From NCBI GenBank assembly GCA_963730935.1, contig CAVSTP010000003.1, forward strand, positions 800,001 through 864,000: 64,000 nt of DNA, in the 5' to 3' direction. Of the stretch, positions 23,656 to 40,586 are shown piece after piece. This DNA is from an uncultured Nitrospiraceae bacterium. GTDB lineage: Bacteria > Nitrospirota > Nitrospiria > Nitrospirales > Nitrospiraceae. Both the position numbers and the translations under genes were made by a program. Below the pieces are notes generated by a model, which was given only the letters and a program-made list of their open reading frames with translations, was not told where the DNA came from and did no database searches. The first letter of the stretch is position 1; each line of letters begins with the position of its first letter.

Positions 23656-24720
23656 TCACGAAGGTTTGATTATCCTGTATCTCATCAACCGGTCACGTAC
23701 GATGTTTCGGCTGATGCCTAACAGACGGGAGGTTCGGACTTGATTGCCCTCGCAGTACTCATACGCGACACGAAGCACCGTCTCGTCGATCCGCTGATAA
23801 AGATTGGGCGTGTTGGCATTAAAAAGCGCTTCGAGAACGTCCTCTAAGGACTTCGTGGAGCCGGTCGACGGTGCTCTTTCGAGAAGCCGTTCGGACCGAG
23901 GAGTAGGAAGGCGGAGGTCTTCGAAGCGCACGCTCGTGCCGGCGCACACGAGAAGCGCATGATGGATTGAGTTTTCGAGTTCCCGAATGTTGCCGGGCCA
24001 TTGGTATGAAAGGAGTGCTTGGACAGTTTCGGGCGCCAGTTCAACGCTGGCATACCCGAGGCGGGCGCCGTACACCTTCAGAAAATGCTGAGCCAGCGGT
24101 AGGATATCGTCGGGGCGTTCGCGCAACGGGGGAAGGTGGATCGACGCCACGTTCAGCCGGTAATACAGATCTTCGCGAAAACGGCCCGCGGCGACGGCTT
24201 CATCCAGTTTGACGTTGGTCGCAGTGATCAGCCGCACATCGATGGCAATCGCTTGACGTGAGCCGACCCGCACCACTTCTCGTTCTTGAATCACACGGAG
24301 TAGTTTGGCCTGAAGGGGAGGCGGCAGGTCGCCGATTTCATCGAGAAATAGCGACCCTCCTTGCGCGGTTTCGAACCATCCGGCCTTGGCGGTGACAGCG
24401 CCGGTGAACGCGCCGCGCTCGTGACCGAAGAGTTCGCTCTCCATGAGTGACTCGCTGATCGCGGCACAATTGAATGCCACGAATGGACCGGATCGACGAT
24501 CACTCAGTTCATGGATCTGTCGCGCGATCAACTCCTTTCCGGTCCCGGTTTCTCCGATGATGAGGGCAGTGGCCTCGCTTGGTGCGATGCGCTGGACTCG
24601 CTCCAAAAGGGACTTCGATGCAGGATCCTCAAAGACGAGACAACTGGCACGGACGGATAGAGCCAGGGCGTGCGGATCGGCAGCTGTGACAATCTTGATT
24701 GGGTCTTGAGTGGGAGGCAT
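23656..24720 (-). CDS. Sigma54-dependent activator without an N-terminal sensor domain (SfnR-like)
   Basis: LVFEDPASKSLL..APSEATALIIGETGTGKE, GAFTGA, AGWFETAQGG, NQVRTSRLLGISRNIVR; resembles Pseudomonas SfnR. Confidence 0.88.
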   Translation of the reverse strand: MPPTQDPIKIVTAADPHALALSVRASCLVFEDPASKSLLERVQRIAPSEATALIIGETGTGKELIARQIHELSDRRSGPFVAFNCAAISESLMESELFGHERGAFTGAVTAKAGWFETAQGGSLFLDEIGDLPPPLQAKLLRVIQEREVVRVGSRQAIAIDVRLITATNVKLDEAVAAGRFREDLYYRLNVASIHLPPLRERPDDILPLAQHFLKVYGARLGYASVELAPETVQALLSYQWPGNIRELENSIHHALLVCAGTSVRFEDLRLPTPRSERLLERAPSTGSTKSLEDVLEALFNANTPNLYQRIDETVLRVAYEYCEGNQVRTSRLLGISRNIVRDRLMRYRIIKPS

Positions 24721-24773
24721 TGTAATGGTGTGAAGATATTACGATGATATGAAGCGGGCCTGTGAGGCCACCG

Positions 24774-25544
24774 TTACTGCTGGGCTGTCCCCCATCGCTG
24801 GTGCATGAAGCGTTCGGTTGGGGCGAACAGTGATTTGTCGACTGCCAGGCCAATGAAAATGATGATGAGGATGACGCCGATGACTTGGTCCATGGCATGG
24901 AGTTCCCGACCATAGTGCAGGAGTTGGCCAAGGCCGAAGCCGCTCAAGATCGTCACGTAAATTTCTGCCGCCATAAGCGAACGCCAGGCGAATGCCCAGC
25001 CCTGTTTCATGCCACTGAGTAAAAAGGGAAGCGCCGCCGGAACGACGACGTGAGTCCAGGTATGCAGGCCGGTGGAACCCATGGTGCGGGCTGCGCGGCT
25101 GTAGATCGGCGGAATAGTCCGCACGCCATTATCCGTGGCGATGACCAAGGACCAGACCGTACCCATGACCACGACAAAGAGCATAGCGGCCTCAGTCTGC
25201 CCGAACCACAGCAGAGCCAACGGCACCCAACAGACACTTGGGAGTGTCTGGAGTCCTAAGGCGAGAATGCCAATTGTGTCATGGCACCATCTGAATGATG
25301 CGGTCAAGAACCCAAGTGGAAGTCCCACGAGAATACCCAATCCATAGCCGATGAGCAGCCGTCGTACCGTGACTACGGTGGCTTCCCACAGCGTGCCGTC
25401 CTGCGCGGCAGTTCGCAGGTACTCGAAAACGCTCGCAGGCGAAGGCAGCAACAGAGGCGACCAGATTTGGGCTTTAACGACCAAATGCCACGCCACCACG
25501 AGACCCACGAAGAATAACGACGCAGCCAACCATCGTGTGATCAA
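24774..25544 (-). CDS. Sulfonate/nitrate/taurine ABC permease (SsuC/TauC-like)
   Basis: LLPSP, LQTLPSVCWVPLALLWFG, AWRSLMAAE. Confidence 0.93.
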   Translation of the reverse strand: MITRWLAASLFFVGLVVAWHLVVKAQIWSPLLLPSPASVFEYLRTAAQDGTLWEATVVTVRRLLIGYGLGILVGLPLGFLTASFRWCHDTIGILALGLQTLPSVCWVPLALLWFGQTEAAMLFVVVMGTVWSLVIATDNGVRTIPPIYSRAARTMGSTGLHTWTHVVVPAALPFLLSGMKQGWAFAWRSLMAAEIYVTILSGFGLGQLLHYGRELHAMDQVIGVILIIIFIGLAVDKSLFAPTERFMHQRWGTAQQ

Positions 25545-26347
25545 CCAGCCACCTCCGGCTGAACGTACCCTTTCAAGACACGCGTGATCTCCGTGGCGTA
25601 ACGGGCAAGATCCACACTGTTGATGTCACGCGGCCGGGGGAGCGGGATGCTGAATTCTTCGCGGATACGCCCGGGGTGGGGTGAAAAAAGAATGACGCGA
25701 TCTCCCAAACAGACGGCTTCGCGCACGTTGTGGGTGACGAACACGATGGTTTTCCGATGTTGGCTCCAGATCCGTTGGATGTCGCCGTAGAGTTGCTCAC
25801 GTGTCAATGCGTCCAAGGCCCCGAACGGTTCGTCCATCAACAGCACGCTCGGATTGGGCGCCAGAGCCCGCGCAAGCGCGACGCGTTGTTTCATTCCTCC
25901 CGACAGCTCATGGACATTCGAGTGCATGAACCGCTTGAGTCCCACGAGTTCGAGAAAATACTCCGCTTTTTCCCGGCGTTCAGGGGCGCTCAGACCATTG
26001 CTGAGTTTCAGGCCGAAGAGCACATTCCCGAGAACCGTGAGCCACGGAAACAGTGCCGACTCCTGAAACATCATCAGCCGGTGGGGACCGGGTTCATTGA
26101 CAGGCTTGCCGTCGGCCTGGACGATGCCACGATCAGCATGGTCAAGCCCGGCAATGATGTTCAGTAACGTGGATTTGCCGCAGCCGCTCGGCCCGACCAA
26201 GCAGACGAACTCTCCCTCTGCAATGCGGAGGGTCACATCATCGAGGGCGTGCACGTGCAACGAGCTCGTTTGGAACCATTTCGAAACATGTTCAAGGACC
26301 AGCTTGGCGGCCAGCGATGGTGCTGGCGGGTGCTCAGTCGTCAACAT
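25541..26347 (-). CDS. Sulfonate/nitrate/taurine ABC ATPase (SsuB/TauB-like)
   Basis: GPSGCGKST, LSGGMKQR, LLMDEPFGALD, LPRPRD. Confidence 0.95.
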   Translation of the reverse strand: MLTTEHPPAPSLAAKLVLEHVSKWFQTSSLHVHALDDVTLRIAEGEFVCLVGPSGCGKSTLLNIIAGLDHADRGIVQADGKPVNEPGPHRLMMFQESALFPWLTVLGNVLFGLKLSNGLSAPERREKAEYFLELVGLKRFMHSNVHELSGGMKQRVALARALAPNPSVLLMDEPFGALDALTREQLYGDIQRIWSQHRKTIVFVTHNVREAVCLGDRVILFSPHPGRIREEFSIPLPRPRDINSVDLARYATEITRVLKGYVQPEVAG

Positions 26348-26348
26348 G

Positions 26349-27317
26349 TCAGTTGAGCCTTTCGATCAGGCGGGAGAGGTCGGGAGCCGACCGGATGAAA
26401 CCGGCTCGTTGCGCATCCGCGACGAAATGCCGGTACTCCTCTATGGAGGGATCATTGGTCAGCACGATCCGCTTCCATGCTTGAGCAATCAGATCGGGCG
26501 ACACGTCGGCTTTCGTTTCAGCGGCCAGTTCCTGCCTGACCATTTGTTTGGCCTCGTCCGGATGCGAAAGGATCCATTCCGTCAATTCACGATGGGCACG
26601 GACGAACTTCGCCGCGAGGTCTCGCTTTTTCTTGAGAAACTTGACGCCCGAGACCAATACCGTGATGCTGTCCTTGGACTGCTCGACGAGGACTTTTCCA
26701 CCAGCATCACGCTCTAAACGCGACACCCAGGGTTCGACTGTCCACACGGCATCAAGCTTCTTGTTTTTGAACAAGGCAAGCTGATCCGGGTTCGGTGTTG
26801 GAATGATGAAGGCATCGCCTCCAGTCTGCGTAATCTTCAGTCCACCGTTGCTGAGCCAAGCCCGGCAGGCAATGTCCTGCGTGTTGCCCAGTTGGGGAGT
26901 CGCAATCGTCTTTCCCCTAAAGTGAGCGGGCTCCTTCAGCCCTGACTCGGGCTGTACGACCAGCGCTGCCCCTCCCGCGGCGGCGGCGGCGACTATTCTA
27001 ATCTCTTCACCATTGGATTTTGTATAGGCATTCAAGGCGGGGCTCGGCCCCACATAGGTCAGGTCGATGGAATCCGCGAGAATGGCTTCCATGGCGCTCG
27101 GACCGGCGTTATAGATGTACCACTCGATTTTCACATCCGGGCCCAACCGGTGCTCGAACCAGCCGCGCCCCGTACGGGACAAATGGTGCGCGACCAGACC
27201 TTGGACATGCGTGACATTGGGAAAATGGCCCACTCGGATCGTGTCCCCTGCTGCAGCGAGAGACGGAGCAGTGGCCATGAAATACGCGAACAAGAGGCTC
27301 CACATTATGATGTGCAT
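26349..27317 (-). CDS. Aliphatic-sulfonate-type ABC substrate-binding protein (SsuA-like)
   Basis: RVGHFPNVTH, YNAGPSAMEA, YVGPSPA, ATPQLGNTQD, VEPW. Confidence 0.9.
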   Translation of the reverse strand: MHIIMWSLLFAYFMATAPSLAAAGDTIRVGHFPNVTHVQGLVAHHLSRTGRGWFEHRLGPDVKIEWYIYNAGPSAMEAILADSIDLTYVGPSPALNAYTKSNGEEIRIVAAAAAGGAALVVQPESGLKEPAHFRGKTIATPQLGNTQDIACRAWLSNGGLKITQTGGDAFIIPTPNPDQLALFKNKKLDAVWTVEPWVSRLERDAGGKVLVEQSKDSITVLVSGVKFLKKKRDLAAKFVRAHRELTEWILSHPDEAKQMVRQELAAETKADVSPDLIAQAWKRIVLTNDPSIEEYRHFVADAQRAGFIRSAPDLSRLIERLN

Positions 27318-27337
27318 GCGTTCACCTTGATTATGAA

Positions 27338-28063
27338 TTATGGGATTGAGACCAGAAGGGAAGTGGTCAATGCCGCGGTCGCCAAAAGCCGAGTAGAATC
27401 CAACAGCGGAAGACTCGATGGCCGCTCCTCTGACAGCAGTAATGGCAGCTCAGTGCAGCCCAGAATGACGGCCTCCGCGCCGCTCGCCGCCATCGTCGAG
27501 ATGATGTCCTGCACATGCGCCCGAGCTTGAGGCAAATAACGTCCTCGAATGAGTTCGGTTCGGATGATTCTGTCCAGTTCAATGCGCTTAGGAACCGGCG
27601 GCAGCACGATTTCGATTCCATGATGTTCAAAGATCGGCTGGTAGATAGTTCCCTGCATGGCCACCTGAGTGCCAAGCAATCCCACTCGCCGGTAATTCCG
27701 GCGGGTCGTTTCGGCCACAACCGCGGCGGCGATGTGCACCCATGGCACAGGGGACACGACGAGATCGAACGCTCGATGCAACGTATTGTTCGGGCAGATG
27801 ATCAGCTCCGCTCCGGCCTGTGCCAGGAGCGAAGCCGATCGGGACATCAGCGCGGCCACGCCGGGCCAATCACCAGCGTCGATGGAGGCCAGGTAGGCCT
27901 CGAGCGGCAGTGCGTGCATCGTGATTTCAGGATAGGCATGTCCGCCTGTAAGCCGTTCGGCTTCATGGCACAGGGTTCGATAGCAGAGCGCCGCGCCGTC
28001 TGCAGTTCCCCCGACGATGCCGATATGGGGCATGTGGTTCAACCGTCCTTCCGTCATGAACAT
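27338..28063 (-). CDS. Aspartate/glutamate racemase family protein
   Basis: IGIVGG, ICPNNTLH, VGLLGT, ILGCTELPLL, LLDST. Confidence 0.9.
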   Translation of the reverse strand: MFMTEGRLNHMPHIGIVGGTADGAALCYRTLCHEAERLTGGHAYPEITMHALPLEAYLASIDAGDWPGVAALMSRSASLLAQAGAELIICPNNTLHRAFDLVVSPVPWVHIAAAVVAETTRRNYRRVGLLGTQVAMQGTIYQPIFEHHGIEIVLPPVPKRIELDRIIRTELIRGRYLPQARAHVQDIISTMAASGAEAVILGCTELPLLLSEERPSSLPLLDSTRLLATAALTTSLLVSIP

Positions 28064-28076
28064 TTCCTCATCTCAA

Positions 28077-28802
28077 TCACGGTTTGTTTGTGAGACGGGG
28101 CTCGAGCCCCGGAAATCCTGGAAGCGCGGACAGCGCCTCGCGATACTTGATATAGAGTTCTTCCCGCTGGTCCGGAGCGAACAACTTTCCTCCGGACTTG
28201 ACCTTGATCAGGTATTCCTCCGGCTCAAAGGTGACATCAAACGCCGACGACCGTTCCGGTACGTTCGGCATCTGTCGGTCATATTTGCTGATATCCGGTT
28301 CGGGCCCATGACGGTCATGGACCTCGCTGAGGGCGAGCACCAACGTCTCCTGCCGGATCGAGAGCCATCCAGACGTGCTCTCCTCATCGCCCTGCTCGGT
28401 CGCATGACTGAGATGAAAATAGACACGTTCGTCCGGCGAGGCCTGCGCCAGTGCCTTCGAGAGCGCAGGCGCCAGGAATGTAATTTCTTCATTACGAAAC
28501 GCTCGAGTCTTTTCGGCCTCTCCCGAAAGCAATCGATGGATGAAGTTGCGGCTTTCCCAACTACGAACACCTCGCAGTAAGGTGCCAATTTCTTCGGGCG
28601 AGAGATTCGCCGGGTGGCCGTTGGTCGTGACCTCGGGGTCTTTCTCGAGCCAAATCTGGTTTCTCCCCGATTCGTAAATGATCTTTGTCGGTGGGTGAGG
28701 AGCGCCCGCGCAACCAGCACCGCCCATCAATCCCATCATGACGAACAGCGGCCAGATGAACCAGCCGACACGTTCATTGTGCGATATTGTCCAGCCCTTC
28801 AT
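28077..28802 (-). CDS. Uncharacterised lipoprotein (left-arm module copy)
   Basis: GAGC lipobox-like; HPANLS..FRNEE..LAPAL..PDERVYF..TSGW; start overlaps the upstream stop. Confidence 0.8.
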   Translation of the reverse strand: MKGWTISHNERVGWFIWPLFVMMGLMGGAGCAGAPHPPTKIIYESGRNQIWLEKDPEVTTNGHPANLSPEEIGTLLRGVRSWESRNFIHRLLSGEAEKTRAFRNEEITFLAPALSKALAQASPDERVYFHLSHATEQGDEESTSGWLSIRQETLVLALSEVHDRHGPEPDISKYDRQMPNVPERSSAFDVTFEPEEYLIKVKSGGKLFAPDQREELYIKYREALSALPGFPGLEPRLTNKP

Positions 28803-29623
28803 GGTCTGACCTCCTGCCGCAATACCAACCCGGTTTTGTCTAACGCCTGATCGAACCCATACTTTTTCAATTCATCCTGAGTGCGTGAAGAAAGAAGGAA
28901 TTCGATAAAATCTCCGGACCCCGAAATGTTCCTCGCCGTCCAAACAATGGCAACCCCGTACTGAATCGGCGAATGGGATTCGGCTGGCGCCGTATCCAGA
29001 ATGCGCACGTGGCTGTCCGTGATGGCGTCCGTCCGGTAGACGACGCCGATTTCGGCCTCGCCTTTCGCGACAAGATCCAGCACAGCACGAGAATGTTCAC
29101 CGTAGACGTATTGGGACTTAAGTGCAGGATCGAGCTTGCTGAATTTGAGAAACTGCGACGCGACTTTCCCCACCGATGAAGTCTTCGGATCGCCGACAGC
29201 AATACGCCGGACGGGAATCGTGCGCAAATCTTCGATGGAACGGATCGGAGCGGGGAGCACGGGACCTGTGATCAAGACCAGCGAAGTGCCGGCATAGATG
29301 CGTTTGGTGCCTTGAATGATCAACCCTTTCTTGTCGAGTTGATCAATCTCCTCGGACAGTGAGGGCAGAAACACATCTACCGGCGCCCCTTCCTCGATTT
29401 GTTTGCGGAGAGACTGTGAGGGACCGTAGATGACACGCACCGTCACTGCCGGGTGCTGCGATTCGAACGCAGGAAGCAGCGTGCGGAGGGCATCTTTGAG
29501 GCTATTCGCCGCCGCAATGGTCAGAGTTTCTGGCTGTGCAAAGGCACGATCGGGAATCCATGCCAGCACGGCAAGCAGACTCAGCACGATGATAGACAAG
29601 TGAAACACGCGATGCTTTTTCAT
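28799..29623 (-). CDS. ModA-family periplasmic oxyanion-binding protein (divergent)
   Basis: LTIAAANSL, QIEEGAPVDVF, IAVGDP..VG, GVVYRTDA, HSPIQY; start at ATG 29623. Confidence 0.88.
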   Translation of the reverse strand: MKKHRVFHLSIIVLSLLAVLAWIPDRAFAQPETLTIAAANSLKDALRTLLPAFESQHPAVTVRVIYGPSQSLRKQIEEGAPVDVFLPSLSEEIDQLDKKGLIIQGTKRIYAGTSLVLITGPVLPAPIRSIEDLRTIPVRRIAVGDPKTSSVGKVASQFLKFSKLDPALKSQYVYGEHSRAVLDLVAKGEAEIGVVYRTDAITDSHVRILDTAPAESHSPIQYGVAIVWTARNISGSGDFIEFLLSSRTQDELKKYGFDQALDKTGLVLRQEVRP

Positions 29624-29636
29624 GGTGTCCTCGCTG

Positions 29637-31271
29637 CTAGAAATAGAACTGGTATTGGACGTTGATGCGGTTTTCGACCAGCTTCTGGCCGAATCCCGGT
29701 TGCGATTCAAATGGAAAGCGATCAGGGGCTCGCCCGCCGCTTCCCATGGTGATGTTGGAGTAGTCGATCACCAGTCGGTTGTTGTACGTGCCGTCGAAGC
29801 TGTAATTGAGAGCGGCACCGAATTCATAGGTGAGGTCATGTGTTTGCTTCGTTGAGGGATCGAGCACCCCATAACGGAGAGCGAGTTCGATTTTGCGGGG
29901 GATGATGTATTTCCCACCTTGGACATACCAGCCCCATGCCTGACCCAAATCTACCGGAGGGCCCTGGATTGCAGTTGACGGGATCGTTGTCAGATCGAAG
30001 GGTTGAGTCCCGCTGTCTTTGTTCCGGACTCGTTGATGCCGGTAATAGACTTCGCTATGTAAAGACCATCCCTGATATTTGGCGACGAAATCCACTTCGT
30101 AGGTCTGAAAATCGTAAATGCCTCCGCCGAGGAGTCGGCCATTCATAGCCTTCGTGACGGCTTGACGGTAGGCACGGTCGACGATGTCAGAACGTGTCGA
30201 GCTCAGATAATTCTGTGCGGGATCATAGGCATAGCCGAAGCCAATGGCGGACTGAGGAGTGCGGGAGTTTACAATGTCTCCCCAACCGTAACCCGGGTTG
30301 CCGGCGATCTTGTACAGCAGACGAGCGGTGTACATGAGTTCCCCGCTCATGAAGCGAGTGTCATAGTTATACGTACGCGTCACTCCAGAATTGACTCCAC
30401 CGCCTCCCGTTGGCGGCAACACATTTTGGCTCACGGATGTTCCGTCCCGTGCCAGGTTTGGCCCGACGCCGCCCCACACGCCGAACGCGTAATTGAACTT
30501 GTATTGCTCCTCGTCGCTCAAAATGCTAATGCCGATGTCGCGCGTGTTTTGAAGGTTGGCTGCAAACATATTCTGGACGATCATGTTGTCCGAAAAACTT
30601 GACGTGGCGACTGGGCTGATGAGCGCGCGATTGAACCACACCTTTTGTTGCCCGATTTGGATGTTGGCCCAGGGGATGTGCCAGGACGACACATAGGCGT
30701 CCAGGAGTCCGGCTTTGCCGTTGCTTCCTTCTTGATTCGATGGCGTCGAATCCATCTGCAGGGAGACGTTGTAGCGAAAATTGGGGTCAAAGGCATAACC
30801 CATGAATTGAAGACGGGCGCGAGGAATCAAGAATTGGCTAGAATCGGATTCCCGCCTGAAGGCCCGAAATTCGACCTGACCTCCCAGGATTTCTTCATTC
30901 CGTGAGTCACCGATGGATCCCCACGCCTTATTATAGGTGCTGTAGGTGTAGCGAGTCTGCACCAGCAGCCGCATTTTCAAAAAGAATCTGTCACCGACAC
31001 GGATGTTCAACCCATTGTTGACATCAATATTGAAATTCGGTTTTGCGAGACGCTCCTTCGTTTCCAATGTGCGAAGGCCTTTGTTGTACTCTTCCTGTGA
31101 GATGATGCCTTTGAGATAAAGGTATTTCAGTCCTGGATCCTCGCTCGAAGAGTATTCCCATTTCCCTTCTTTTTTGACGAACTGGCCCTCTTCAACTGCC
31201 CAGGCAGCGCCGAGGTGAGCGAACAGGATCGTTCCTGTCACGATAAACATAAACCATCCGGAAATTCTCAT
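29637..31271 (-). CDS. OprO/OprP-like anion-selective porin (left copy)
   Basis: Signal peptide; RARLQFMG, LLDAY, QIGQQK, RDIG, ELALRYG; C-terminal QYQFYF. Confidence 0.82.
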   Translation of the reverse strand: MRISGWFMFIVTGTILFAHLGAAWAVEEGQFVKKEGKWEYSSSEDPGLKYLYLKGIISQEEYNKGLRTLETKERLAKPNFNIDVNNGLNIRVGDRFFLKMRLLVQTRYTYSTYNKAWGSIGDSRNEEILGGQVEFRAFRRESDSSQFLIPRARLQFMGYAFDPNFRYNVSLQMDSTPSNQEGSNGKAGLLDAYVSSWHIPWANIQIGQQKVWFNRALISPVATSSFSDNMIVQNMFAANLQNTRDIGISILSDEEQYKFNYAFGVWGGVGPNLARDGTSVSQNVLPPTGGGGVNSGVTRTYNYDTRFMSGELMYTARLLYKIAGNPGYGWGDIVNSRTPQSAIGFGYAYDPAQNYLSSTRSDIVDRAYRQAVTKAMNGRLLGGGIYDFQTYEVDFVAKYQGWSLHSEVYYRHQRVRNKDSGTQPFDLTTIPSTAIQGPPVDLGQAWGWYVQGGKYIIPRKIELALRYGVLDPSTKQTHDLTYEFGAALNYSFDGTYNNRLVIDYSNITMGSGGRAPDRFPFESQPGFGQKLVENRINVQYQFYF

Positions 31272-31411
31272 GTCGGGACTCCTTCATGACATGGGAACTT
31301 CCGGTGGTCCGGTCAGTCCGTAACGTAAATTGTAGGTCCATCTCGATCACCACCTTTAGTTGTCTGGCAGGCGGTGAGTTCCTTCCCTAAACGAACAGGT
31401 CAATGCGACGC

Positions 31412-31585
31412 TCATCCAACAAGTGATGCGCGGCGCGACGGCTCCAGCTCCACGCGCACCTTTTCTCTGCGCTCGATCTGGACGACCTTCGAATCGTGGA
31501 CGATGATTTCCACCGATCCGAAACGCAGGTCTTTCAACGCTTGCAAGATGGTTTGTTCGATTCTGTAACCGTCGTCAGATCGCAT
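31412..31585 (-). CDS. YezD/DUF2292 small protein (OscA-like sulfur-starvation protein)
   Basis: ILQALKDLRFGSVEIIVHDSKVVQIERREKVR; GAGG RBS before the ATG at 31585. Confidence 0.9.
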   Translation of the reverse strand: MRSDDGYRIEQTILQALKDLRFGSVEIIVHDSKVVQIERREKVRVELEPSRRASLVG

Positions 31586-31620
31586 AAAGAACCTCAACTC
31601 AAATGGCGTGAAAAGCGGTT

Positions 31621-31683
31621 AATCTACAGTATTCCGCTAGATTTTATGTGCTATATATAAATTAACATTATCTACATTGTCAA
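31621..31683 (-). promoter_or_regulatory. Leftward sigma70 promoter plus AATCTA-N11-TAGATT operator
   Basis: Minus-strand TTGACA (31683-31678), AT-rich -10 at about 31654-31660; palindrome at 31621-31643. Confidence 0.6.
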
Positions 31684-31759
31684 CAATTATTTTACGACCC
31701 TTGTTGCTGATCTAATCAAGAACCCATGTCAGATAGGACCTACCGGGATGAGAGGACAG

Positions 31760-31794
31760 TATACTTGACTAAAAGCAAGTATAAATGGTATCTG
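31760..31794 (+). promoter_or_regulatory. Rightward promoter overlapped by a TATACTTG-N8-CAAGTATA operator
   Basis: Perfect 8-bp arms at 31760-31767 and 31776-31783, overlapping a TTGACT -35 element. Confidence 0.65.
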
Positions 31795-31804
31795 GTCTGC
31801 CAAC

Positions 31805-32977
31805 ATGGGTCAAAACAACCAGGCCGAACCTGCTCATTTCTTTCAGAATCGTCTGAAGAACGTCCGCATCGCCAAAGGATTCTCGCAAGCGGAACTTGCC
31901 GCGAAATCCGGAATCACCAGACAAGCCGTCTCTGCCATTGAATCTGAAGTCTATCTTCCCACCACCGCAGTTGCCCTGCGATTGGCTTCCGTTCTCGCGT
32001 GCCGCGTGGAAGATCTCTTCAGCCTCGCCGAACCAGATGAGGTGATCGAGGGGACGTTCATTGGGACTTCACCACCGATCGACGCGCGGACTGTGCCGCT
32101 CCGAGTCAAAGTCGCGACGGTTGGGACAAAAACTATCGTTCGTCCGGTCAACGGACTTGGCGACGTGCTGTCGTACACGGTTCCGGCAGACGGATATTTA
32201 ATCGATACCCTCTCACAGCGTTCGGGTGTCAAAGCCCGGGTGCGTCTCTCCCGCGATCGGCAATCTGTCGAGCGCGACATATCCGTGGCCGGGTGCGATC
32301 CCGCCATTTTCCTCGCCGGAGAACATTTGCGTCGCCAAAAAGATCAGGCCTCTGTGATCGGCTGGACCATGGGCAGCACGGCTGCGTTGCAGGCGCTTGA
32401 GCGGGGAGAAGTGCATGTGGCGGGGCTTCACTTGTTCGACCCTTCGAGCGGCGAATCCAACCTGCCCTTCCTGAAACGCGTCCTGAAAGGAACGGCGTAT
32501 GACGTCGTGACCTTCGCAACCTGGGAGGAAGGATTTCTCGTTCGACCTGGCAATCCAAAAGGGATCCACGAAGCTGCTGATCTTGCCGAGTCGAACGTGA
32601 GATTGATCAATCGTGAAGAGGGATCCGGAGCCCGCCTTTTGCTCGACCAACGTCTGCGCGCTGCCGGTCTTGACCACACTCAGATACAAGGCTACGACAC
32701 AGTCCTGTGGTCACATTTTGACGTGGCTCGTGCCATTGCGGGCCATCAGGCTGATGTCGGTATCGGCATCCGATCGGCCGCTCAGCTGTTCGGATTGGAT
32801 TTCGTCCCGGTCCAAGCCGCCCGTTACGACCTCGTCGTGCCGACGCCCTACCTCAGGTCTCATCCGACGCTCGCGAATCTCTTCGACACGCTCGTCAGCC
32901 GGTCGTTCCGAAATGAGATCGAGGCGCTGGGCGGCTACGACACACGAGACACAGGCAAACTGCATTCGCTGCGATAA
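31805..32977 (+). CDS. XRE-HTH + PBP_like (molybdate/tungstate-binding) transcriptional regulator
   Basis: N-terminal NRLKNVR..SQAELA..ITRQAVSAIE; C-terminal AGCDPA, GSTAAL, HVAGLHL, LINREEGSGAR, GGYD. Confidence 0.9.
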   Translation: MGQNNQAEPAHFFQNRLKNVRIAKGFSQAELAAKSGITRQAVSAIESEVYLPTTAVALRLASVLACRVEDLFSLAEPDEVIEGTFIGTSPPIDARTVPLRVKVATVGTKTIVRPVNGLGDVLSYTVPADGYLIDTLSQRSGVKARVRLSRDRQSVERDISVAGCDPAIFLAGEHLRRQKDQASVIGWTMGSTAALQALERGEVHVAGLHLFDPSSGESNLPFLKRVLKGTAYDVVTFATWEEGFLVRPGNPKGIHEAADLAESNVRLINREEGSGARLLLDQRLRAAGLDHTQIQGYDTVLWSHFDVARAIAGHQADVGIGIRSAAQLFGLDFVPVQAARYDLVVPTPYLRSHPTLANLFDTLVSRSFRNEIEALGGYDTRDTGKLHSLR

Positions 32978-32987
32978 GGAGATAGCG

Positions 32988-33816
32988 ATGATGTGGAGTC
33001 GGCTTGTCAGTCTGAGCGTTCTGTGTCCTGGGGCTAGAGATCTCTCCCGCCGTGGCCACGGAACAATTAGTCATTGCCACCTCACCCAGTATGCGTGTTC
33101 CCGTCGAGGCGCTGGGACGTCAGTTCGAAAAGACACATCCTGAGATCCGCGTACGGCTGTTTTTCGATTCGGGCCTCGACCTTCGCCGAACCATCGCCGG
33201 CATGGAGAATAGTCCTCGAGGGCAGTACTTCATCGGCTCAGGTCCTATTCATCTAGTGGCGCCAGGCGGCGATGAGCTGATTACTCGTCTTGAACAGAAG
33301 TATTACGTCCTGCCGGGAACGAAGCGGCCCTATGCGGAGGTGCCGCTGGTCATGGTCGTGCCCGAGGCACTCGTTGATGCTCCGACGTCGTTTGAAGCCT
33401 TGGGCACGAACGAGACGTTGCGGATCGCGGTGGGTGACCCTGAACTGACCACCCTTGGTCACCAGACCAAGCAGCTGTTGACGACACTGGGAGTGTGGTC
33501 ATCCGTCGAAGGCCGACTGGATGAGGCAAGCGACACACGGTCGGTGTTGGATCATTTGCTCAATGGGCAGGCCGACGTTGGGGTCCTTTTTGGACCCGAC
33601 GCGGTGCAGGAAAGCCAACGCATTCGGATCGTGGCTGTTTCCGAGCGCGGCACGATTCCGCCCGTGGTCCATTCCATGGCGATGGAACGGTATTGTCCCA
33701 ATCGCGCACTTTGCCAAGAGTTTCTTGGCTTCATTCAATCTGCTGAAGCCCAGAAAGAACTCCAGCGCCTGGGGTACACGCCGCCGCCACAAAGCCAGTC
33801 CATGAAGAAAGACTGA
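32988..33816 (+). pseudogene. Divergent ModA-like binding protein with a frameshift in its signal peptide
   Basis: AAGGAG + ATG at 32988 reads MMWSRLVSLSVL; the body frame (AFCVLGLEISPAVATEQLVIAT..IAVGDP..ADVGVLFGPDA) opens only after the TGA at 33013. Confidence 0.7.
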
Positions 33817-33848
33817 TTACAGATGCAGCTATCTAAGAAGAGGAGGCG

Positions 33849-34511
33849 GTGATGAGTAGCCGGATAGGGTTCTTGTCAGCGTTTGGTCTTATATTTTTGT
33901 TTTTCGCAAGCATCGTGTCGGGAGGGTGCGCCAGACTCCCATACACAACGTCGGTCATTCACGAGGATCGTCGTGTTGTCGTGTCACTTCAACGGGATCC
34001 CCATGCGGTTTCCTACACTCATCCCGTCCACCTCCAAGCCAACGACCTCGCTGCTATTCTGAACGGATTTTCGTTCCGTGAAAAACAGCGATTGCCGCTC
34101 CGGTGGTTCGCGGAAGAGGTGCCGCCGAAGAAGATTTTCCGTTCCGATGAAATGCAAGCTATCGTGCCTTTTCTAATAGAAGGGCTCGAGAAGGCAGCTC
34201 CTGACGAGCGCGTCTATTTTCAAGTGCTGGCGCCAGGGATGAATCCTGCCTCGGAACGAGACACGACCGCCGGATGGATCGCTGTGAGAGAGCCCTTCCT
34301 CCACCTAGCGCTCGAGCACTACCACGCGCAGTTTCCCATCAGGAAATCCGAACAGTGGGACCTCCGCTATCCCGCCACCCCTCCGGAGCCAAAGACGTAC
34401 CTGCTGTACTTCGAGCCGGGACGGTTCTGGGAGACAGAGCCGGTGAGCCGCAGGGAAGCCGTGCAGCTCCGTGAGTTTCTCAAGGCCGCCGTTCCCGCTT
34501 CTCCGAAATAA
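33849..34511 (+). CDS. Uncharacterised lipoprotein (right-arm module copy)
   Basis: AGGAGG RBS; SGGC lipobox; HPVHLQ..FRSDE..PDERVYF..TAGW. Confidence 0.82.
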   Translation: MMSSRIGFLSAFGLIFLFFASIVSGGCARLPYTTSVIHEDRRVVVSLQRDPHAVSYTHPVHLQANDLAAILNGFSFREKQRLPLRWFAEEVPPKKIFRSDEMQAIVPFLIEGLEKAAPDERVYFQVLAPGMNPASERDTTAGWIAVREPFLHLALEHYHAQFPIRKSEQWDLRYPATPPEPKTYLLYFEPGRFWETEPVSRREAVQLREFLKAAVPASPK

Positions 34512-34583
34512 AGCACTGAACACCGTAGCGATAGGGCCATCCAAACTTGTTGCTCATTCATATTCTTTGCTTCGGGAGGGATT

Positions 34584-36341
34584 ATGGGAATGTCAAGCCG
34601 TTCAGATGCCAACGCGAGGCGGTGCCGTCGTGTACATGGCATCATCGTTCTGATTGGACTTATCTTCTGCATCCTGCAAGTGGATCCCGTTCAGGCGGTT
34701 GATTCTGGCAAACTTATCGAGAAGGACGGGCAATATGTCTTTGTCGAAAGCATGGATCCGGCCACGCGACTCTTACTGGAGCGAGCCTATGAAAAAGGCA
34801 TCATTAGTCAGGAGGAACGCGACAAGGCGATCAAAGAGTCCGAAGCCCGCGCGTATCTCATGCAGCCGAGTTTCAAAATGTGGTACGACCGCGGCTTCAA
34901 TTTTTCAATGAACGATAACGCGTTTCTCCTCAAGATCCGAGGACGCATGCAGTTGCGGGAAACGACTCGTTGGAGAAACGATGCCTGGAGAAATCCGGGC
35001 GACGCAAAAAATTATCCGGAACTCCTTGGCGTGTTTGGCGACTACCGTGCCAATCGATCGGATGATTTTGCCTCGCAATTCAATTTACGGCGGGCTAGGC
35101 TGTTGTTTCTCGGTCACCTCCTCAGTCCAGACTTCAAGTACTTCCTTCAGATCGGATTTGAAACAGCTGAAAATGCCCAAACTCCTGGATCAGCCAACTT
35201 GCTGGACTACTATGTTCTCAGCACACATCTTCCCCTCTTAAATGTGCAACTGGGCCAGTACAAGATCTACTTCAACCGCTCACAGATCAACAACACCGCC
35301 TCCATGCAATTCGCCGAACGGGCGCTGGTCATGGATGCGTTCACGGCCAACGGCATGAATCGGCGGGATATCGGTCTGACGATCATGAACGATGACGAAA
35401 TCTACCCCGTCAATTATTACCTGGGGATTTTCAACGGCGCGGGTCCACTCTTTAATCGCTATGGCACCTACAACAGTGAAGAAGCCACGGTGGGATGTCC
35501 TGGTGGGCAAACTGGCGGCAACCCTTTCCCTTCTCCGGCCGGATGCCCGGTCAATTCGCGCAATCTCAATGCCAACTTTCGCGACGAGATCGACAAGCTG
35601 ATGTATGCCGGGCGGCTCCAGTGGAATATTCTGGGACGGCCGGGATATGGCGAAGGCGATTTGGCCTATTCAGAAGCCCCGCAGATGGCGGTGGGCGGCG
35701 GGCTCGCTTACAACCCCGGTATCAATACGAGCACCGACAACGCGTTTGTCGGCATCGACTTGGCGAACCTGAATTTCCGTCGTCAGTTGGCGACGTTCGG
35801 TAATGGACGCCAATTGGGGTGGGGGGTCGTCAACTACACGACTTACGCGTTCGACGGCGTCTTCAAGTACAGAGGCTTCTCGCTTCAAGGGGAATATTAC
35901 TTCAAAAACATCGAGCGGACATTCAAAGGTGCGCCGTGTTTACAATTCAATGCGGCGGGAGCTTGTACCGCCGTGACACCTCAGCTCTTGGGGAACGCGA
36001 CCGGATGGTATGTGCAGTCGGGGTATTATCTGATTCCTCGACATTTGGAAGTGGCCGCGCGGTATGCCTATTGGGACCCCGATACCAATGCGGCCGGCGA
36101 CCTGATCAAAGAGGTCGATGTGTCGCTCAATTGGTTTCCCTTTGGGAACTATGATTATCAGCTCATGTTGACCTATACAAATCTGGCGATGGGCACGGGC
36201 GGCTATGCGATCGGCCGCAGTGCACCTTTGCCGACGCAGCCGCCTGGAGCGGTCAATCCCTCTGGAACGGTGCCGCTCGACGCGGTAGGGGGAACTTTGA
36301 TTGAAAATGCGATTCGCGTGCAGCTGCAGATCTTCTTCTGA
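34584..36341 (+). CDS. OprO/OprP-like anion-selective porin (right copy)
   Basis: FNLRRARLLFLG, LLDYY, QLGQYK, RDIG, EVAARYA; C-terminal QLQIFF; paralog of 29637-31271. Confidence 0.82.
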   Translation: MGMSSRSDANARRCRRVHGIIVLIGLIFCILQVDPVQAVDSGKLIEKDGQYVFVESMDPATRLLLERAYEKGIISQEERDKAIKESEARAYLMQPSFKMWYDRGFNFSMNDNAFLLKIRGRMQLRETTRWRNDAWRNPGDAKNYPELLGVFGDYRANRSDDFASQFNLRRARLLFLGHLLSPDFKYFLQIGFETAENAQTPGSANLLDYYVLSTHLPLLNVQLGQYKIYFNRSQINNTASMQFAERALVMDAFTANGMNRRDIGLTIMNDDEIYPVNYYLGIFNGAGPLFNRYGTYNSEEATVGCPGGQTGGNPFPSPAGCPVNSRNLNANFRDEIDKLMYAGRLQWNILGRPGYGEGDLAYSEAPQMAVGGGLAYNPGINTSTDNAFVGIDLANLNFRRQLATFGNGRQLGWGVVNYTTYAFDGVFKYRGFSLQGEYYFKNIERTFKGAPCLQFNAAGACTAVTPQLLGNATGWYVQSGYYLIPRHLEVAARYAYWDPDTNAAGDLIKEVDVSLNWFPFGNYDYQLMLTYTNLAMGTGGYAIGRSAPLPTQPPGAVNPSGTVPLDAVGGTLIENAIRVQLQIFF

Positions 36342-36358: not shown

Positions 36359-36886
36359 ATGATATTACGCAAGACGGATCTGGTCGCCTTCCAAGAAACA
36401 CACGCCATGGCGGCTCGGGGAGTCGAGAGTGGCAGTCTTTCGGCAGAAGGGACCATCATGAATTGGGTGAGGGGACTGATCCGTTCGCAATATGTCGGCC
36501 TCGTTCGATCCGGCGTTCGAATCAAGGTCGGGGCGCGAACGGATCTCCGCATCAGATGGACGAAACGAGAAGAACGATGTTTCATCGTTGGCCAACCGGT
36601 TGTCGCCATAATCCCTGCCGGCGCAGTGCGTCTGGAAAGTGGACTGTTTCGCCGGAGCAAACAGCGGTGGAATCGCTGGGTTGGCCGCATCGTGTTGATC
36701 GAGCACCTGGAAGTTGGTGTCGTGTATTCAGTAAAAGTGCATAGAGAGGAATGGACCCTCAAGAGCCTGGGGTCCGTCCTCGGAGCGAAACAGCCGAGTA
36801 GGCCGTGGGACGTCGTCAATGTGGTCGTCGATCCCCAGGTTGTGGAATTGTCGGTTGCCGCTCCATGTTTGATGAGGCATACCTAA
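36359..36886 (+). CDS. Degenerate tandem TOBE-domain-like protein
   Basis: GGGAGG RBS; NWVRGLI..GQPVVAIIPAGAVRL..NRWVGRIV resembles TOBE repeats. Confidence 0.6.
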   Translation: MILRKTDLVAFQETHAMAARGVESGSLSAEGTIMNWVRGLIRSQYVGLVRSGVRIKVGARTDLRIRWTKREERCFIVGQPVVAIIPAGAVRLESGLFRRSKQRWNRWVGRIVLIEHLEVGVVYSVKVHREEWTLKSLGSVLGAKQPSRPWDVVNVVVDPQVVELSVAAPCLMRHT

Positions 36887-36900
36887 GGAAGGATTGTTCG

Positions 36901-37704
36901 ATGAACAAGTTGAATCCCTATATCCGGAATTTATGTGTTGCAGGTTGGGCGGCGCTAATCATATGCGTAGGTGCGCAACTCGCGCTTCGTCAGGACGCTG
37001 TTGCCGAAGAGATCGTAATCGCCGCTGCGTCGGATTTGAATTTCGCAATCAAAGACGTCATTGTCGAGTATGAGAAGGCGACCGGGAACCATGTCAAGTT
37101 GTCCTTGGGTTCGTCCGGGAACTTTTATGCGCAGATTCAGAATGGCGCTCCGTTCGATCTGTATTTTTCGGCGGACATCGCCTACCCCAAGAAACTGGAA
37201 GAGGCGGGTCTCATTGTGCCTGGGTCCTTATACCGCTATGCGGTCGGTCGGATCGTTCTCTGGACCAATCATGCCTCCCGGCGGGATGTGTCCAAGGGAA
37301 TGGATGTCCTTCGCGATCCTGCCGTAAAAAAAATTGCGATCGCCAATCCGAAACACGCGCCGTACGGGAGGGCCGCCGTTGCGGCGATGCAACACTTCAA
37401 GGTCTATGACGAGGCAAAAGACCGACTGGTGTTGGGAGAAAACATCTCGCAAGCCGCCCAATTCATCGAATCCGGCGCCTGTGATGTCGGCGTGATTGCC
37501 CTCTCGCTGGCGCTGGCGCCGACTATGAAAGCGGCAGGCACCTATTGGGAAATTCCAAGTGACGCTCATCCCCCACTGGAACAGGGTGCAGGGATCTTGA
37601 AATCGTCGAAACAACAAGAGACCGCGAAGCAATTTTTAGAGTTTATGCGAGGCAAACAGGGACAGGAGATCATGACCCGTTATGGGTTTACGCTTCCGCA
37701 ATAA
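36901..37704 (+). CDS. modA: Molybdate ABC transporter substrate-binding protein
   Basis: IAAASDL, GSSGNFYAQIQNGAPFDLYFSAD, IANPKHAPYGRAA, GENISQA. Confidence 0.96.
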   Translation: MNKLNPYIRNLCVAGWAALIICVGAQLALRQDAVAEEIVIAAASDLNFAIKDVIVEYEKATGNHVKLSLGSSGNFYAQIQNGAPFDLYFSADIAYPKKLEEAGLIVPGSLYRYAVGRIVLWTNHASRRDVSKGMDVLRDPAVKKIAIANPKHAPYGRAAVAAMQHFKVYDEAKDRLVLGENISQAAQFIESGACDVGVIALSLALAPTMKAAGTYWEIPSDAHPPLEQGAGILKSSKQQETAKQFLEFMRGKQGQEIMTRYGFTLPQ

Positions 37705-37999
37705 CCCGGTCTGGCTGTTGACGCTCGTGCTGCTGGGCGGCTGTTCCGATGCGGTGCAGATGACGCACGAAACGGAGCAGGGAGGCGTGGTGACCTTTCT
37801 CTTCAAGGAAGACCGGGGCGGTCCGATGGGCTCGCCGCACCGCAAGGCCGCACTGAAACTTGTCGAGGAGAAGTGTCCCAAGGGCTATATCGTCCTCCGC
37901 GAGGGTGAGATGAAAGGCTACAGCAGCATGTCCAGTGTAGAGGGCCAGGAAGGAGAAATTGCGAATCGTCGATGGGGAATCCAATTTCGATGCAAATAG
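37682..37999 (+). CDS. Small lipoprotein, hypothetical
   Basis: LLGGC lipobox; CPKGY..IQFRCK (likely disulfide). Confidence 0.7.
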   Translation: MGLRFRNNPVWLLTLVLLGGCSDAVQMTHETEQGGVVTFLFKEDRGGPMGSPHRKAALKLVEEKCPKGYIVLREGEMKGYSSMSSVEGQEGEIANRRWGIQFRCK

Positions 38000-38007
38000 G
38001 AGCGGGT

Positions 38008-38517
38008 ATGCGATCGGTTACTATAGCGGTCGGCCTCGTTTGGTTGCTCACAGTAACGAGCGTTGGCTCCGAAGAGCATCTGAATTGTCGGCCGTCCGCG
38101 GCGGAAGGATTCTCCAATATTCAAATGGAAACATCAGACATCACGTTGCACGAACAACTGTTTGAGCAGGTATTTCACGCGCAGAGCATCCAGCGCTTGG
38201 ACCACCCTCAAACGGATCTGATTCGCATCTATTGTCTCCGTGATGTCGTTGTGGCGATCAGGCAGGATCTTCGTCAACCGCGCCAAACCGGATGGGTGCA
38301 AATCAACTTTTGGGTCAAGGATGTGGCGTCGCTGCAGGAGACGCTGTCGACGGCCGTGCGTGACTCGGCACTGGGTCAACTGGCCGACGCAGACCGAGAT
38401 AAAGTGGTTCGGTTTCGGATGAAACAGGGTGTCATGCGAGGGCAGCGAAAGGTAGACCGCTTGGAAGTCTACGGACCCGAGGGGTTTCTGATCGGCTTTG
38501 ATCAACCCACACATTAA
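38008..38517 (+). CDS. Exported VOC/glyoxalase-like protein
   Basis: Signal peptide; QINFWVKDV..EVYGPEGFLIGF resembles VOC beta-alpha-beta-beta-beta units. Confidence 0.6.
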   Translation: MRSVTIAVGLVWLLTVTSVGSEEHLNCRPSAAEGFSNIQMETSDITLHEQLFEQVFHAQSIQRLDHPQTDLIRIYCLRDVVVAIRQDLRQPRQTGWVQINFWVKDVASLQETLSTAVRDSALGQLADADRDKVVRFRMKQGVMRGQRKVDRLEVYGPEGFLIGFDQPTH

Positions 38518-38529
38518 CAGGAGGACGCC

Positions 38530-38733
38530 ATGAAACTAAGCGCGCGCAATCAATTTCAAGGCACCGTGACCCGCATCACCGAGGGGCAGGCGATGGCCGA
38601 GGTGGCGGTGAAAGTGGGTAATCTCGAGTTCATCGCGGCGATCACCGAAGGGTCGGTGAAAAATATGGGCCTCAAGCTGAACGATTCAGTTACTGTGGCA
38701 GTCAAAGCGACTGAAGTCATGATCGGGAAATAG
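38530..38733 (+). CDS. mop: Molbindin (single TOBE/Mop molybdate-binding protein)
   Basis: MKLSARNQFQGTV..AITEGSVKNMGL..VKATEVMI. Confidence 0.93.
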   Translation: MKLSARNQFQGTVTRITEGQAMAEVAVKVGNLEFIAAITEGSVKNMGLKLNDSVTVAVKATEVMIGK

Positions 38734-38767
38734 CCGGCGTTGACTATGCCGACAGCGGCTTTCTACT

Positions 38768-38797
38768 ATGGCGCCGCCTTCGGAAAGCCGGCGCCAT
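38768..38797 (+). terminator. GC-rich hairpin between mop and modB
   Basis: ATGGCGCCG..CGGCGCCAT stem; no U-tract. Confidence 0.45.
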
Positions 38798-38835
38798 GGC
38801 GGCGCGCCGTTGAATCATCCGGTTAAGGCGGCACT

Positions 38836-39510
38836 GTGAGCTGGACGGCCATTTGGGTAACGTGCAAATTGGCAAGCCTGACCTCGATGGCGCTGCTCGT
38901 CATCGGATTGCCTATTGCCTATTGGCTGACCTTTTCGAAGTGGCGGTGGAAATTTCTCGTCGAATCGATCGTGGCGCTTCCGTTGGTGCTGCCACCGACG
39001 GTGCTGGGCTTTTACATCCTGGTCGCCATCGGTCCCCATAGTCCGATTGGCCGGTTGTATACCGACATCGTGGGTCAGACCCTCCCATTCAGCTTCCAGG
39101 GTCTGCTCGTTGCTTCGATCTTGTACAGTCTTCCATTTGCCGTTCAGCCGTTCGCGACAGCCTTCGATCAGGTTGACCGCAACCTCATCGAAGCTTCGTG
39201 GACTCTCGGCCTTTCCAAAGCCAAAACGTTCTTCAAGCTGATCATTCCACTCTCTGCCGCTGGTGTAATCACCGGCGCAGTCTTGAGCTTTGCCCATACC
39301 CTCGGCGAGTTCGGGGTTGTCCTCATGGTCGGCGGGAACATCGAAGGGGTCACTCGAACGGTCTCCATCGACATCTATGATGACGTCCAGGCGCTCAACT
39401 ATGGCGCCGCGGCCAACACGGCATTGTTTCTGCTGGTCGTTTCCTATGCCGTCTTACTGTTCATCTATGCGATGAATCGCAAGGTCTGGGCGGTATGGCC
39501 GCAGAAGTAG
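38836..39510 (+). CDS. modB: Molybdate ABC permease
   Basis: ALPLVLPPTVLGFY, YSLPFAVQP, FAHTLGEFGVVLMVGGNI. Confidence 0.97.
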   Translation: MSWTAIWVTCKLASLTSMALLVIGLPIAYWLTFSKWRWKFLVESIVALPLVLPPTVLGFYILVAIGPHSPIGRLYTDIVGQTLPFSFQGLLVASILYSLPFAVQPFATAFDQVDRNLIEASWTLGLSKAKTFFKLIIPLSAAGVITGAVLSFAHTLGEFGVVLMVGGNIEGVTRTVSIDIYDDVQALNYGAAANTALFLLVVSYAVLLFIYAMNRKVWAVWPQK

Positions 39511-40586
39511 CGATCGAGATTACCAAGGCCTTTCCCGCACGCGCACCCATTAGCGCCGTGCTGAGGTACCAGCTTCAGCAAGCCACCGCACTGGTGCTGT
39601 TCGGGCCGTCAGGATCCGGAAAAACAACGGTGCTACGGTCCATCGCCGGTCTCGAATGGCCGGAGCGAGGGAGCATCCGATTCATTTCGCGCACCTGGCT
39701 CGATACCACCGCAGGGATTCGCGTGGCTCCGCAAGATCGCCAGATCGGATATATGGCGCAGGACTATGCGTTGTTTCCGACCCACACCGTTGCGGGAAAC
39801 ATTGCCTATGGATTGTCGGCGCTTCCAGCGGCCGAACGGAACAGGCGTGTCGATGAAATGGTGGAACTGTTCCAGCTGCGCGGCCTTGAAACATCCAAGC
39901 CCAGGGAACTGTCCGGCGGGCAACAGCAGCGTGTGGCGTTGGCCAGGGCCGTGGCAACTCGGCCGCAATTGCTCCTGCTCGATGAGCCGCTCTCCGCGCT
40001 CGATATCCCCACGAGGATGCAGCTCCGTGGAGAGCTCCGAACGTTGCTGAAGCGTCTGGCCTTGCCTTCGATCATCGTCACCCATGATTGGGCAGAAACA
40101 CTCAGTCTCGGAGACCTGGTGGCGGTGATGGGAGAAGGACAGGTGATACAGGTCGGCTCACCACAAGAGGTCTTTTGTCGACCGGCCAACGCTATGGTGG
40201 CTCAAATTGTCGGTGTTGAAACGGTGATTGAAGGCCATGTCATCGAGGAGGTGGATGGGCTGGCGACCGTTCGGGTGAACGGAACCTTGCTGAAGGGTTT
40301 GGGCGGCTATGCGATCGGCTCCGCGGTGTTTGTCTGTGTTCGTGCCGAGGATGTGGTGTTAGAGCAGGGTGGCACCGGACTGACCAGCGCACGAAACCAT
40401 CTGAATGGAAAAGTCATCGAGATCATCCCTCATGGCGTCATGGTCCACGTAAAGATTGACTGTGGCTTCCCACTCATCGCCATGGTCACCCGAGGGGCGC
40501 AGCAGGAGTTGAGGATCGAATTGGGATCTCCCGTGGTGGCCGTTATTAAGGCCGGAGCCGTCCATCTGGTGCCAAGAACGGAGTAA
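39495..40586 (+). CDS. modC: Molybdate ABC ATPase with C-terminal TOBE domain
   Basis: GPSGSGKTT, LSGGQQQR, LLLDEP, TSARNHL. Confidence 0.95.
   Translation: MAAEVAIEITKAFPARAPISAVLRYQLQQATALVLFGPSGSGKTTVLRSIAGLEWPERGSIRFISRTWLDTTAGIRVAPQDRQIGYMAQDYALFPTHTVAGNIAYGLSALPAAERNRRVDEMVELFQLRGLETSKPRELSGGQQQRVALARAVATRPQLLLLDEPLSALDIPTRMQLRGELRTLLKRLALPSIIVTHDWAETLSLGDLVAVMGEGQVIQVGSPQEVFCRPANAMVAQIVGVETVIEGHVIEEVDGLATVRVNGTLLKGLGGYAIGSAVFVCVRAEDVVLEQGGTGLTSARNHLNGKVIEIIPHGVMVHVKIDCGFPLIAMVTRGAQQELRIELGSPVVAVIKAGAVHLVPRTE

Follow-up and report, generated by a model that had tools for sequence, protein, structure and literature searches.

The passage of trace molybdate and sulfate through the outer membrane is poorly defined, and in Nitrospira the nitrite oxidoreductase depends on molybdenum. 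Outer-membrane channels equipped with dedicated partners, including a lipoprotein, are represented by systems of the SusC/SusD type, which are TonB-dependent 22-stranded barrels with surface lids. For the OprP/OprO phosphate porins of Pseudomonas aeruginosa, we know of no ModA-like binder or lipoprotein partner. The OprP features used for comparison in this study were taken from an excerpt of PMC5877670, which also presents ExtI, an OprO/P-like porin encoded in the extHIJKL... cluster of Geobacter sulfurreducens and implicated in the handling of chalcogen oxyanions. Here, a divergent locus is described that occupies positions 28077 to 36341 of a 64,000-nucleotide stretch, referred to as the window, from an uncultured Nitrospiraceae bacterium (assembly GCA_963730935.1, contig CAVSTP010000003.1, positions 800,001 to 864,000). 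Both arms of the locus encode a porin, a ModA-family protein (hereafter binder) and a lipoprotein, designated L on the left and R on the right arm. Many Nitrospira, which are nitrite-oxidising bacteria, hold two such related three-gene sets, one heading a sulfur-uptake and the other a molybdate-uptake operon; the cultured N. defluvii (L161) is among the species with the locus. No account of this trio was found in the literature searched.

The left arm, encoded on the reverse strand, is transcribed in the order porin L (29637..31271, 544 amino acids (aa)), ModA-like binder L (28799..29623, 274 aa, signal peptide recognised by inspection) and lipoprotein L (28077..28802, 241 aa, lipobox Cys31). 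The right arm, on the forward strand, follows the order binder R (32988..33816), lipoprotein R (33849..34511, 220 aa, lipobox Cys27) and porin R (34584..36341, 585 aa). The two orders are thus permutations of each other and not mirror images, as an earlier note on this DNA had stated. The recurrence of the same three gene types on both arms, also claimed there, was confirmed. The porins are 36% identical over 582 columns (E 2e-109) and share the motifs DP..KGIISQEE and L[VI]EN.I.VQ.Q..F, the binders, 28% identical, score 164.9 (L) and 70.6 bits (R) with TIGR01256 (cut-off 62.5), and the lipoproteins, 28% identical (E 2e-26), combine the lipobox Cys with the motif PDERVYF..T.GW. Likewise, the reported overlap between the genes of binder L and lipoprotein L is real and comprises four nucleotides (nt; 28799-28802). 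The supposed lack of an adjacent permease had to be given up, since permease genes follow in both operons, an ssuC-like gene (24774-25544) on the left and modB (38836-39510) on the right, and a separate binding protein goes with either of them.

The trio behaves as one unit that is conserved and can be relocated. Among the relatives, which carry Nitrospira or Nitrospiraceae titles, 40 mapped regions displayed both trios in the order of the window throughout the genus, and a search with porin L matched 52 of 61 genomes at some level. In a survey of the GTDB collection anchored on binder R (69 loci; denominators refer to loci with enough DNA), binder R was followed by the lipoprotein in 65/65 loci and by the porin in 60/60; the regulator gene was located upstream in 66 of 67 and modA downstream in 47 of 50 loci. 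Porin L was divergent from the binder R set in 34/54 loci. Both partners followed porin L in all 23 loci picked by the porin query and in all 33 longer regions, two sets that draw on overlapping genomes and leave truncated porins and those below 60% identity uncounted. Moreover, the left trio remained intact after relocation in three loci (L077, L091, L096), and a third copy was found among chemoreceptor genes and a PAS histidine kinase gene (L136), its L-type porin scoring 49.2 bits with PF07396. One porin R without a visible partner (L049) lies where its contig ends. The modular unit proposed in the earlier note was therefore borne out by the gene-neighbourhood survey.

Further evidence was obtained from genomes in which the position of the trio is filled differently. 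A census of the family covered 35 high-quality genomes; the 20 with the binder clade were also the 20 with the porin clade, and canonical ModA was present in all 35, also where the binders are absent. Each of the 15 trio-less genomes contained one AlgE-family porin between the regulator gene and modA (PF13372 on the three scanned), as did genome G200, which holds the left trio only. In addition, 5 of the 15 had one unrelated lone OprO/P porin between oscA and sbp or ssuA (three scanned). Because single porins take the place of the trio, the slot is interpreted as an outer-membrane entry, in agreement with the outer-membrane role suggested previously, and one pore gene appears to do the trio's job in the replacement genomes. 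The presence of binder and lipoprotein follows that of this porin clade, both being absent wherever the trio porin is absent (16 genomes with another porin in the slot). AlgE-family (PF13372) porins directly upstream of modA were recorded in L117-L131, L095 and L132. Many of these pre-modA porins share an N-terminal hairpin-helix segment with the trio porins, and the AlgE-family porin preceding modA is a candidate for a further type of molybdate channel, differing in fold.

Porin R matched PF07396 with 39.4 bits (cut-off 20.9). Its structural model (predicted local distance difference test (pLDDT) 74.6) comprises an N-terminal hairpin, two helices and then 16 long strands, and OprP and OprO ranked first in the structure comparison; as modelled, porin R is a 16-stranded beta-barrel closest to OprP/OprO. 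Porin L, which carries a weak SHOCT-like motif at its N-terminus, gave no direct PF07396 match at E<=0.01 in the profile search and was assigned to the OprO/P type via its homology to porin R, its sister at the above-mentioned 36% identity. Both porins feature many invariant Arg/Lys alignment columns and arm-specific Arg sets. Matches to the ExtI model NF040900 were weak (17 and 28 bits vs a cut-off of 150). The gene context points to sulfur and molybdenum, away from phosphate.

For binder L, pocket positions were set by alignment to the solved ModA structures 4kd5, 8zj6, 4rxl and 7tav. The side-chain ligands of Escherichia coli ModA listed in an excerpt of PMC8895017 are Ser12, Ser39 and Tyr170, and the equivalent Ser, Ser and Tyr were present in 33/33 aligned binder L sequences, a set that was not dereplicated. 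Besides conserved changes of its own (AANS, GPSQ, SSVG, EHSR), binder L thus appears to possess a conserved ModA pocket of the E. coli type; it gave no sulfate-binder match in the profile search. Unlike binder L, binder R does not keep this ligand set. Phe replaces Tyr in at least 26 of 38 sequences (1AMF alignment), the second site is variable (FDSG, LDSG, VDTS), the protein carries a 12-residue insert, and other segments outside the pocket, including a Cys pair, are conserved. Hence, the altered anion-binding motifs formerly ascribed to both binders hold for binder R and not for binder L; the ModA encoded at 36901, which had served as reference, is of a different subtype and itself lacks the Tyr (IALSLA). 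Binders L and R, together with two stand-alone paralogues, form a clade of their own apart from the operon ModA (support 0.95) and are restricted to genomes with the porin clade. Since a separate ModA accompanies modBC in the examined loci (47/50 in the survey anchored on binder R), the binders do not represent the cognate binding proteins of ModBC. The stand-alone ModA-like genes (G000:C4:917019-917858 and C4:1043094-1043894) fall into the binder-L clade and are 36-39% identical to binder L.

Neither lipoprotein matched a Pfam or NCBIfam entry, and no solved fold matched the AlphaFold2 (AF2) model of lipoprotein R (pLDDT 87.3) in the structure search. According to its profile, the lipoprotein family is restricted to Nitrospirales and occurs in 50 of 201 genomes of the phylum, all in two taxonomic families (35/35 and 14/14, plus G000, which is the genome studied here), and it comprises 1614 clusters at 50% identity. 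In phosphate-type loci (L073, L072, L099, L103, L104, L108, L058), a porin, a family lipoprotein and a PstS-like binder are encoded together, and in urea loci (L071, L106, L109) one or two family lipoproteins lie beside a urea-binder gene, some paralogues adjoining both porin and urea-binder genes. At G000:C4:1416409-1417696, a porin gene apparently split into two frames lies in the vicinity of genes for a PstS-like protein and a family lipoprotein. Because paralogues adjoin porin and PstS-like or porin and urea-binder genes, the family may, under the obligate-channel reading considered below, represent a general porin-binder adaptor in Nitrospirales. Another member is encoded in the window at 2418-3167 (+), after tsaB/rimI/tatC-like genes and with no porin nearby; its position is kept by orthologues in L097 and L110, with which L101, L105, L107 and L112 group in the tree.

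Regarding regulation, the first gene of the left operon encodes a DUF2292/OscA-like small protein (31412..31585, reverse strand; PF10055 E 6e-17; NF033785 57.5 bits, below the cut-off of 85), and the right operon is headed by a gene for a regulator with HTH_3 and PBP_like domains, as assigned by domain profiles (31805..32977, forward strand). Both genes had been overlooked in the earlier note, as had a frameshift in binder R. A sigma70-type promoter is conserved among relatives in each direction. The left one (31655..31683, reverse strand; TTGACA, 17 nt, TTATAT) is directly followed by an operator-like conserved element (31619..31646, reverse strand), and the right one (31760..31793, forward strand) is overlapped by the palindrome TATACTTG-N8-CAAGTATA (31760-31783), probably the operator of the adjacent HTH+PBP regulator. 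Using 18 promoters of the left arm in relatives, a matrix was constructed that scored the window site with 33.6 bits and recovered the motif 24-38 nt upstream of the Rrf2 gene of a cys operon in this genome and in 5/5 relatives (0-1 of 500 shuffles) as well as upstream of 3/3 Rrf2-TauE-porin operons of family f3 (0-3 of 500 shuffles); five control promoters were negative. The Rrf2-headed cys operon (G000:C2:384734-392151; L137) contains a sulfite reductase-like gene, cysH, a trpD/YbiB-like gene, cysD and cysN, and its Rrf2 gene has a palindromic site after its own promoter. As the Rrf2 regulator reached 104 bits with the CymR model NF047409 (cut-off 195), passed the Rrf2 superfamily cut-off and heads a cys operon, it is named CymR-like here. 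The operator common to the left promoter and the Rrf2-led cys operon supports a sulfur role of the left copy.

Downstream of the left trio, 29 loci encode Sbp (7), an SsuA-like binder (18) or neither (4), and never both. The SsuA-family binder of the window barely passes TIGR01728 (164.2 vs 163.5 bits). In this genome, which is 99.89% complete and has one SulP-family gene, no match was obtained for Sbp or for the TauD and SsuD families (PF02668, PF00296). An assignment of the left downstream genes to SsuABC alkanesulfonate uptake consequently lacks its desulfonating enzyme, and for this reason sulfate or thiosulfate is the more likely substrate of the 'ssu' transporter than a sulfonate. With the left trio in a sulfur regulon and the right one in a molybdate operon, the former proposal of one copy for sulfur compounds and one for molybdenum/tungsten was retained in this part; the retuning of both binders that went with it was not, given the conserved ModA-type pocket of binder L.

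The model that best accounts for the observed gene anatomy, its conservation, the single porins in its place, the fold of the porin and the shared operator, with a chance slightly above even, treats each trio as a single unit through which a tetrahedral oxyanion enters across the outer membrane; in this model, the lipoprotein positions the binder at the pore exit for a sink or gating function, and the ABC binder takes over. Substrates, direction of regulation, contacts and hand-over are the predicted components of this model. The anion would be admitted by the Arg-rich 16-stranded OprP/OprO-type porin, and the lipoprotein and the ModA-like protein would belong as accessories to the porin clade and not to the ABC transporters, each of which brings a binder of its own. 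Anchored at the periplasmic face of the outer membrane, the lipoprotein would keep the ModA-like protein near the pore exit, where the latter would act as sink or gate before the anion is handed to Sbp or the SsuA-like protein (left) or to ModA (right). The left copy would be expressed under sulfur shortage via the CymR-like Rrf2 repressor and serve sulfate/thiosulfate; expression of the right copy would be shared with modABC and governed by the HTH+PBP regulator, its substrates being molybdate/tungstate. Binder R with its degenerate pocket would probably be structural or gating more than high-affinity. A bolder version, which we put forward tentatively and as the less probable one, is an obligate three-subunit outer-membrane channel, in which a lipoprotein of new fold clamps the binding-protein domain on the exit of an OprP-type pore for TonB-free capture or gating, an old duplication having led to a sulfate gate and a molybdate gate.

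In order to evaluate coupling among the three proteins, distance correlations were computed after removing the flanking-gene signal. Adjacent pairs outside the trio reached 0.16-0.33 (33 of 37), the members of the right trio 0.42-0.66 (53 sequences, dereplicated from 72), and binder and lipoprotein of the left arm 0.65. In L035, the right trio was replaced as a block (55/51/67% vs 75/82/94% for the flanks). From these values, the binder-lipoprotein pair appears to be the most consistent link. Several findings weigh against the entry unit. Linkage alone can raise distance correlations and confounds all of the coupling figures, and porin L is not tracked by binder L and lipoprotein L (partial r 0.21 and 0.17, n=20, equal to cross-arm pairs). 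The lipoprotein family is a general one, with eight copies in this genome and 3-11 per genome of the family, and 14 of 104 sampled copies had no known porin or binder within 3.5 kb. Extra lipoprotein and porin pairs without a binder occur in L048 and L093, and the two further ModA-like paralogues of the genome stand alone, with no porin or lipoprotein beside them. Moreover, 14 of the 15 replacement genomes come from one genus and thus represent only a few events. Finally, sister-clade porins of family f3 (32-36% identical) had no binder or lipoprotein nearby in 7/7 loci, some of them cut by contig ends. A TauE-like gene precedes these porins in 5 of 7 cases (recognised by sequence, two scanned), with an Rrf2 gene before it in three; therefore, this type of pore can occur there on its own, in a setting linked to sulfur. 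As a separate observation, the extra lipoprotein and porin copies (L048:12342-16634, L093:4381-8682) are divergent from a gene whose 1430-aa product contains a two-partner-secretion domain (PF05860 in L048).

The outgroup porins lacking both partners, the weak coupling of porin L and the paralogues of lipoprotein and binder found apart from porins would be expected if the trio consisted of co-regulated independent parts, namely an ordinary anion pore, a free periplasmic buffer binder and a general envelope lipoprotein (e.g., for porin assembly or anchoring), co-inherited by proximity without forming a complex. This explanation is considered unlikely, albeit the strongest competitor. Binder and lipoprotein are both gone in the 16 genomes where another porin fills the slot, although they should be useful if pore-independent; the three genes stay together in two orders and after relocation, and in binder R the pocket varies but segments elsewhere in the protein are conserved. 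Considerably less probable is a selectivity filter or decoy, in which binder L would trap molybdate, tungstate, chromate or selenate entering with sulfate during sulfur starvation and so shield the sulfate importer and ATP sulfurylase, without any relay. In its favour, molybdate and selenate disturb the uptake and activation of sulfate, the ligand set of ModA is intact in all 33 binder L sequences, binder L scores well above the TIGR01256 cut-off and gave no sulfate-binder match, and the operon already holds Sbp or an SsuA-like binder; a decoy function leaves unexplained the degenerate pocket of binder R and the absence of the binder in genomes whose equivalent sulfur operon relies on a lone porin. 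A sensor reporting periplasmic or external anion to a regulator without bulk transport is very improbable, since simple porins replace the main copies and no conserved inner-membrane signalling partner lies beside them, even though the third copy (L136) is flanked by chemoreceptor genes on one side and a PAS histidine kinase gene on the other and the extra right copies (L048, L093) are accompanied by a response-regulator-like gene and a second HTH+PBP regulator.

The remaining genes of both operons were annotated as follows. On the left, the sulfur genes (23656..28063, reverse strand) encode an Asp/Glu-family racemase (27338-28063), the SsuA-family binder (26349-27317), an ABC ATPase (25541-26347), the ssuC-like permease and a sigma54 activator (23656-24720). 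The racemase scored 98.5 with the cysteate racemase model (cut-off 190), and several relatives are devoid of the gene. A small conserved open frame encoding a Trp-rich, basic C-terminal tail precedes oscA in L039, L044, L065, L077, L080, L087 and L094 and is absent in the window. On the right, the molybdate ABC genes (36901..40586, forward strand) comprise modA (36901-37704), a small lipoprotein gene (37682-37999), an uncharacterised gene (37972-38517), mop (38530-38733), modB and a modC-like gene (39495-40586), and a further uncharacterised gene (36359-36886, forward strand) is located between porin R and modA. The two uncharacterised genes have no Pfam match and a patchy occurrence in relatives; a relative of the latter in L048 gave weak TOBE matches. 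Furthermore, the ATG of binder R at 32988 is out of frame with 33052-33816 due to one extra base at 33025/33026, which separates the signal peptide from the main frame in this assembly. The base is absent in four relatives and in contigs of three of four sequencing runs (X2, X3, X15; X1 had no depth there), and represents an assembly error or a private allele.

Under the entry-unit model, the locus supplies candidate channels for molybdate and sulfate and offers a natural comparison between a three-gene unit and one porin, of AlgE or OprO type, occupying the same position. If a complex exists, it would lend a passive pore higher affinity or selectivity in a manner for which no precedent turned up in the literature searched. 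The lipoprotein family is large, confidently modelled and unmatched to solved folds. Compared with systems of the SusC/SusD type, the trio likewise combines a channel with a lipoprotein, but the pore is a passive-type porin, the partner has a periplasmic binding-protein fold and the lipoprotein is unrelated. With ExtI it has in common an OprO/P-like porin encoded with conserved partner genes, whereas the ExtI partners, as far as given in the excerpt of PMC5877670, are cytochromes and a rhodanese for selenite/tellurite reduction and include no ModA-like protein. As in ModA-ModBC systems, both binders pass TIGR01256, and binder L keeps the equivalents of the E. coli ligands named in the excerpt of PMC8895017; in contrast to these systems, the trio binders form their own clade, occur only alongside the porin clade, and binder R has lost pocket residues. 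A close counterpart is OprP/OprO with PstS-PstCAB of P. aeruginosa, which shares with porin R the barrel fold and the Pfam family, has an Arg-rich pore and is likewise paired with a starvation-controlled ABC system of high affinity for an oxyanion. The trio differs from these phosphate porins in its sulfur and molybdenum context, in the extra N-terminal hairpin and helices of its porin, and in that its porin gene is tied to a second, ModA-like binder and to a lipoprotein that matched no Pfam or NCBIfam family.

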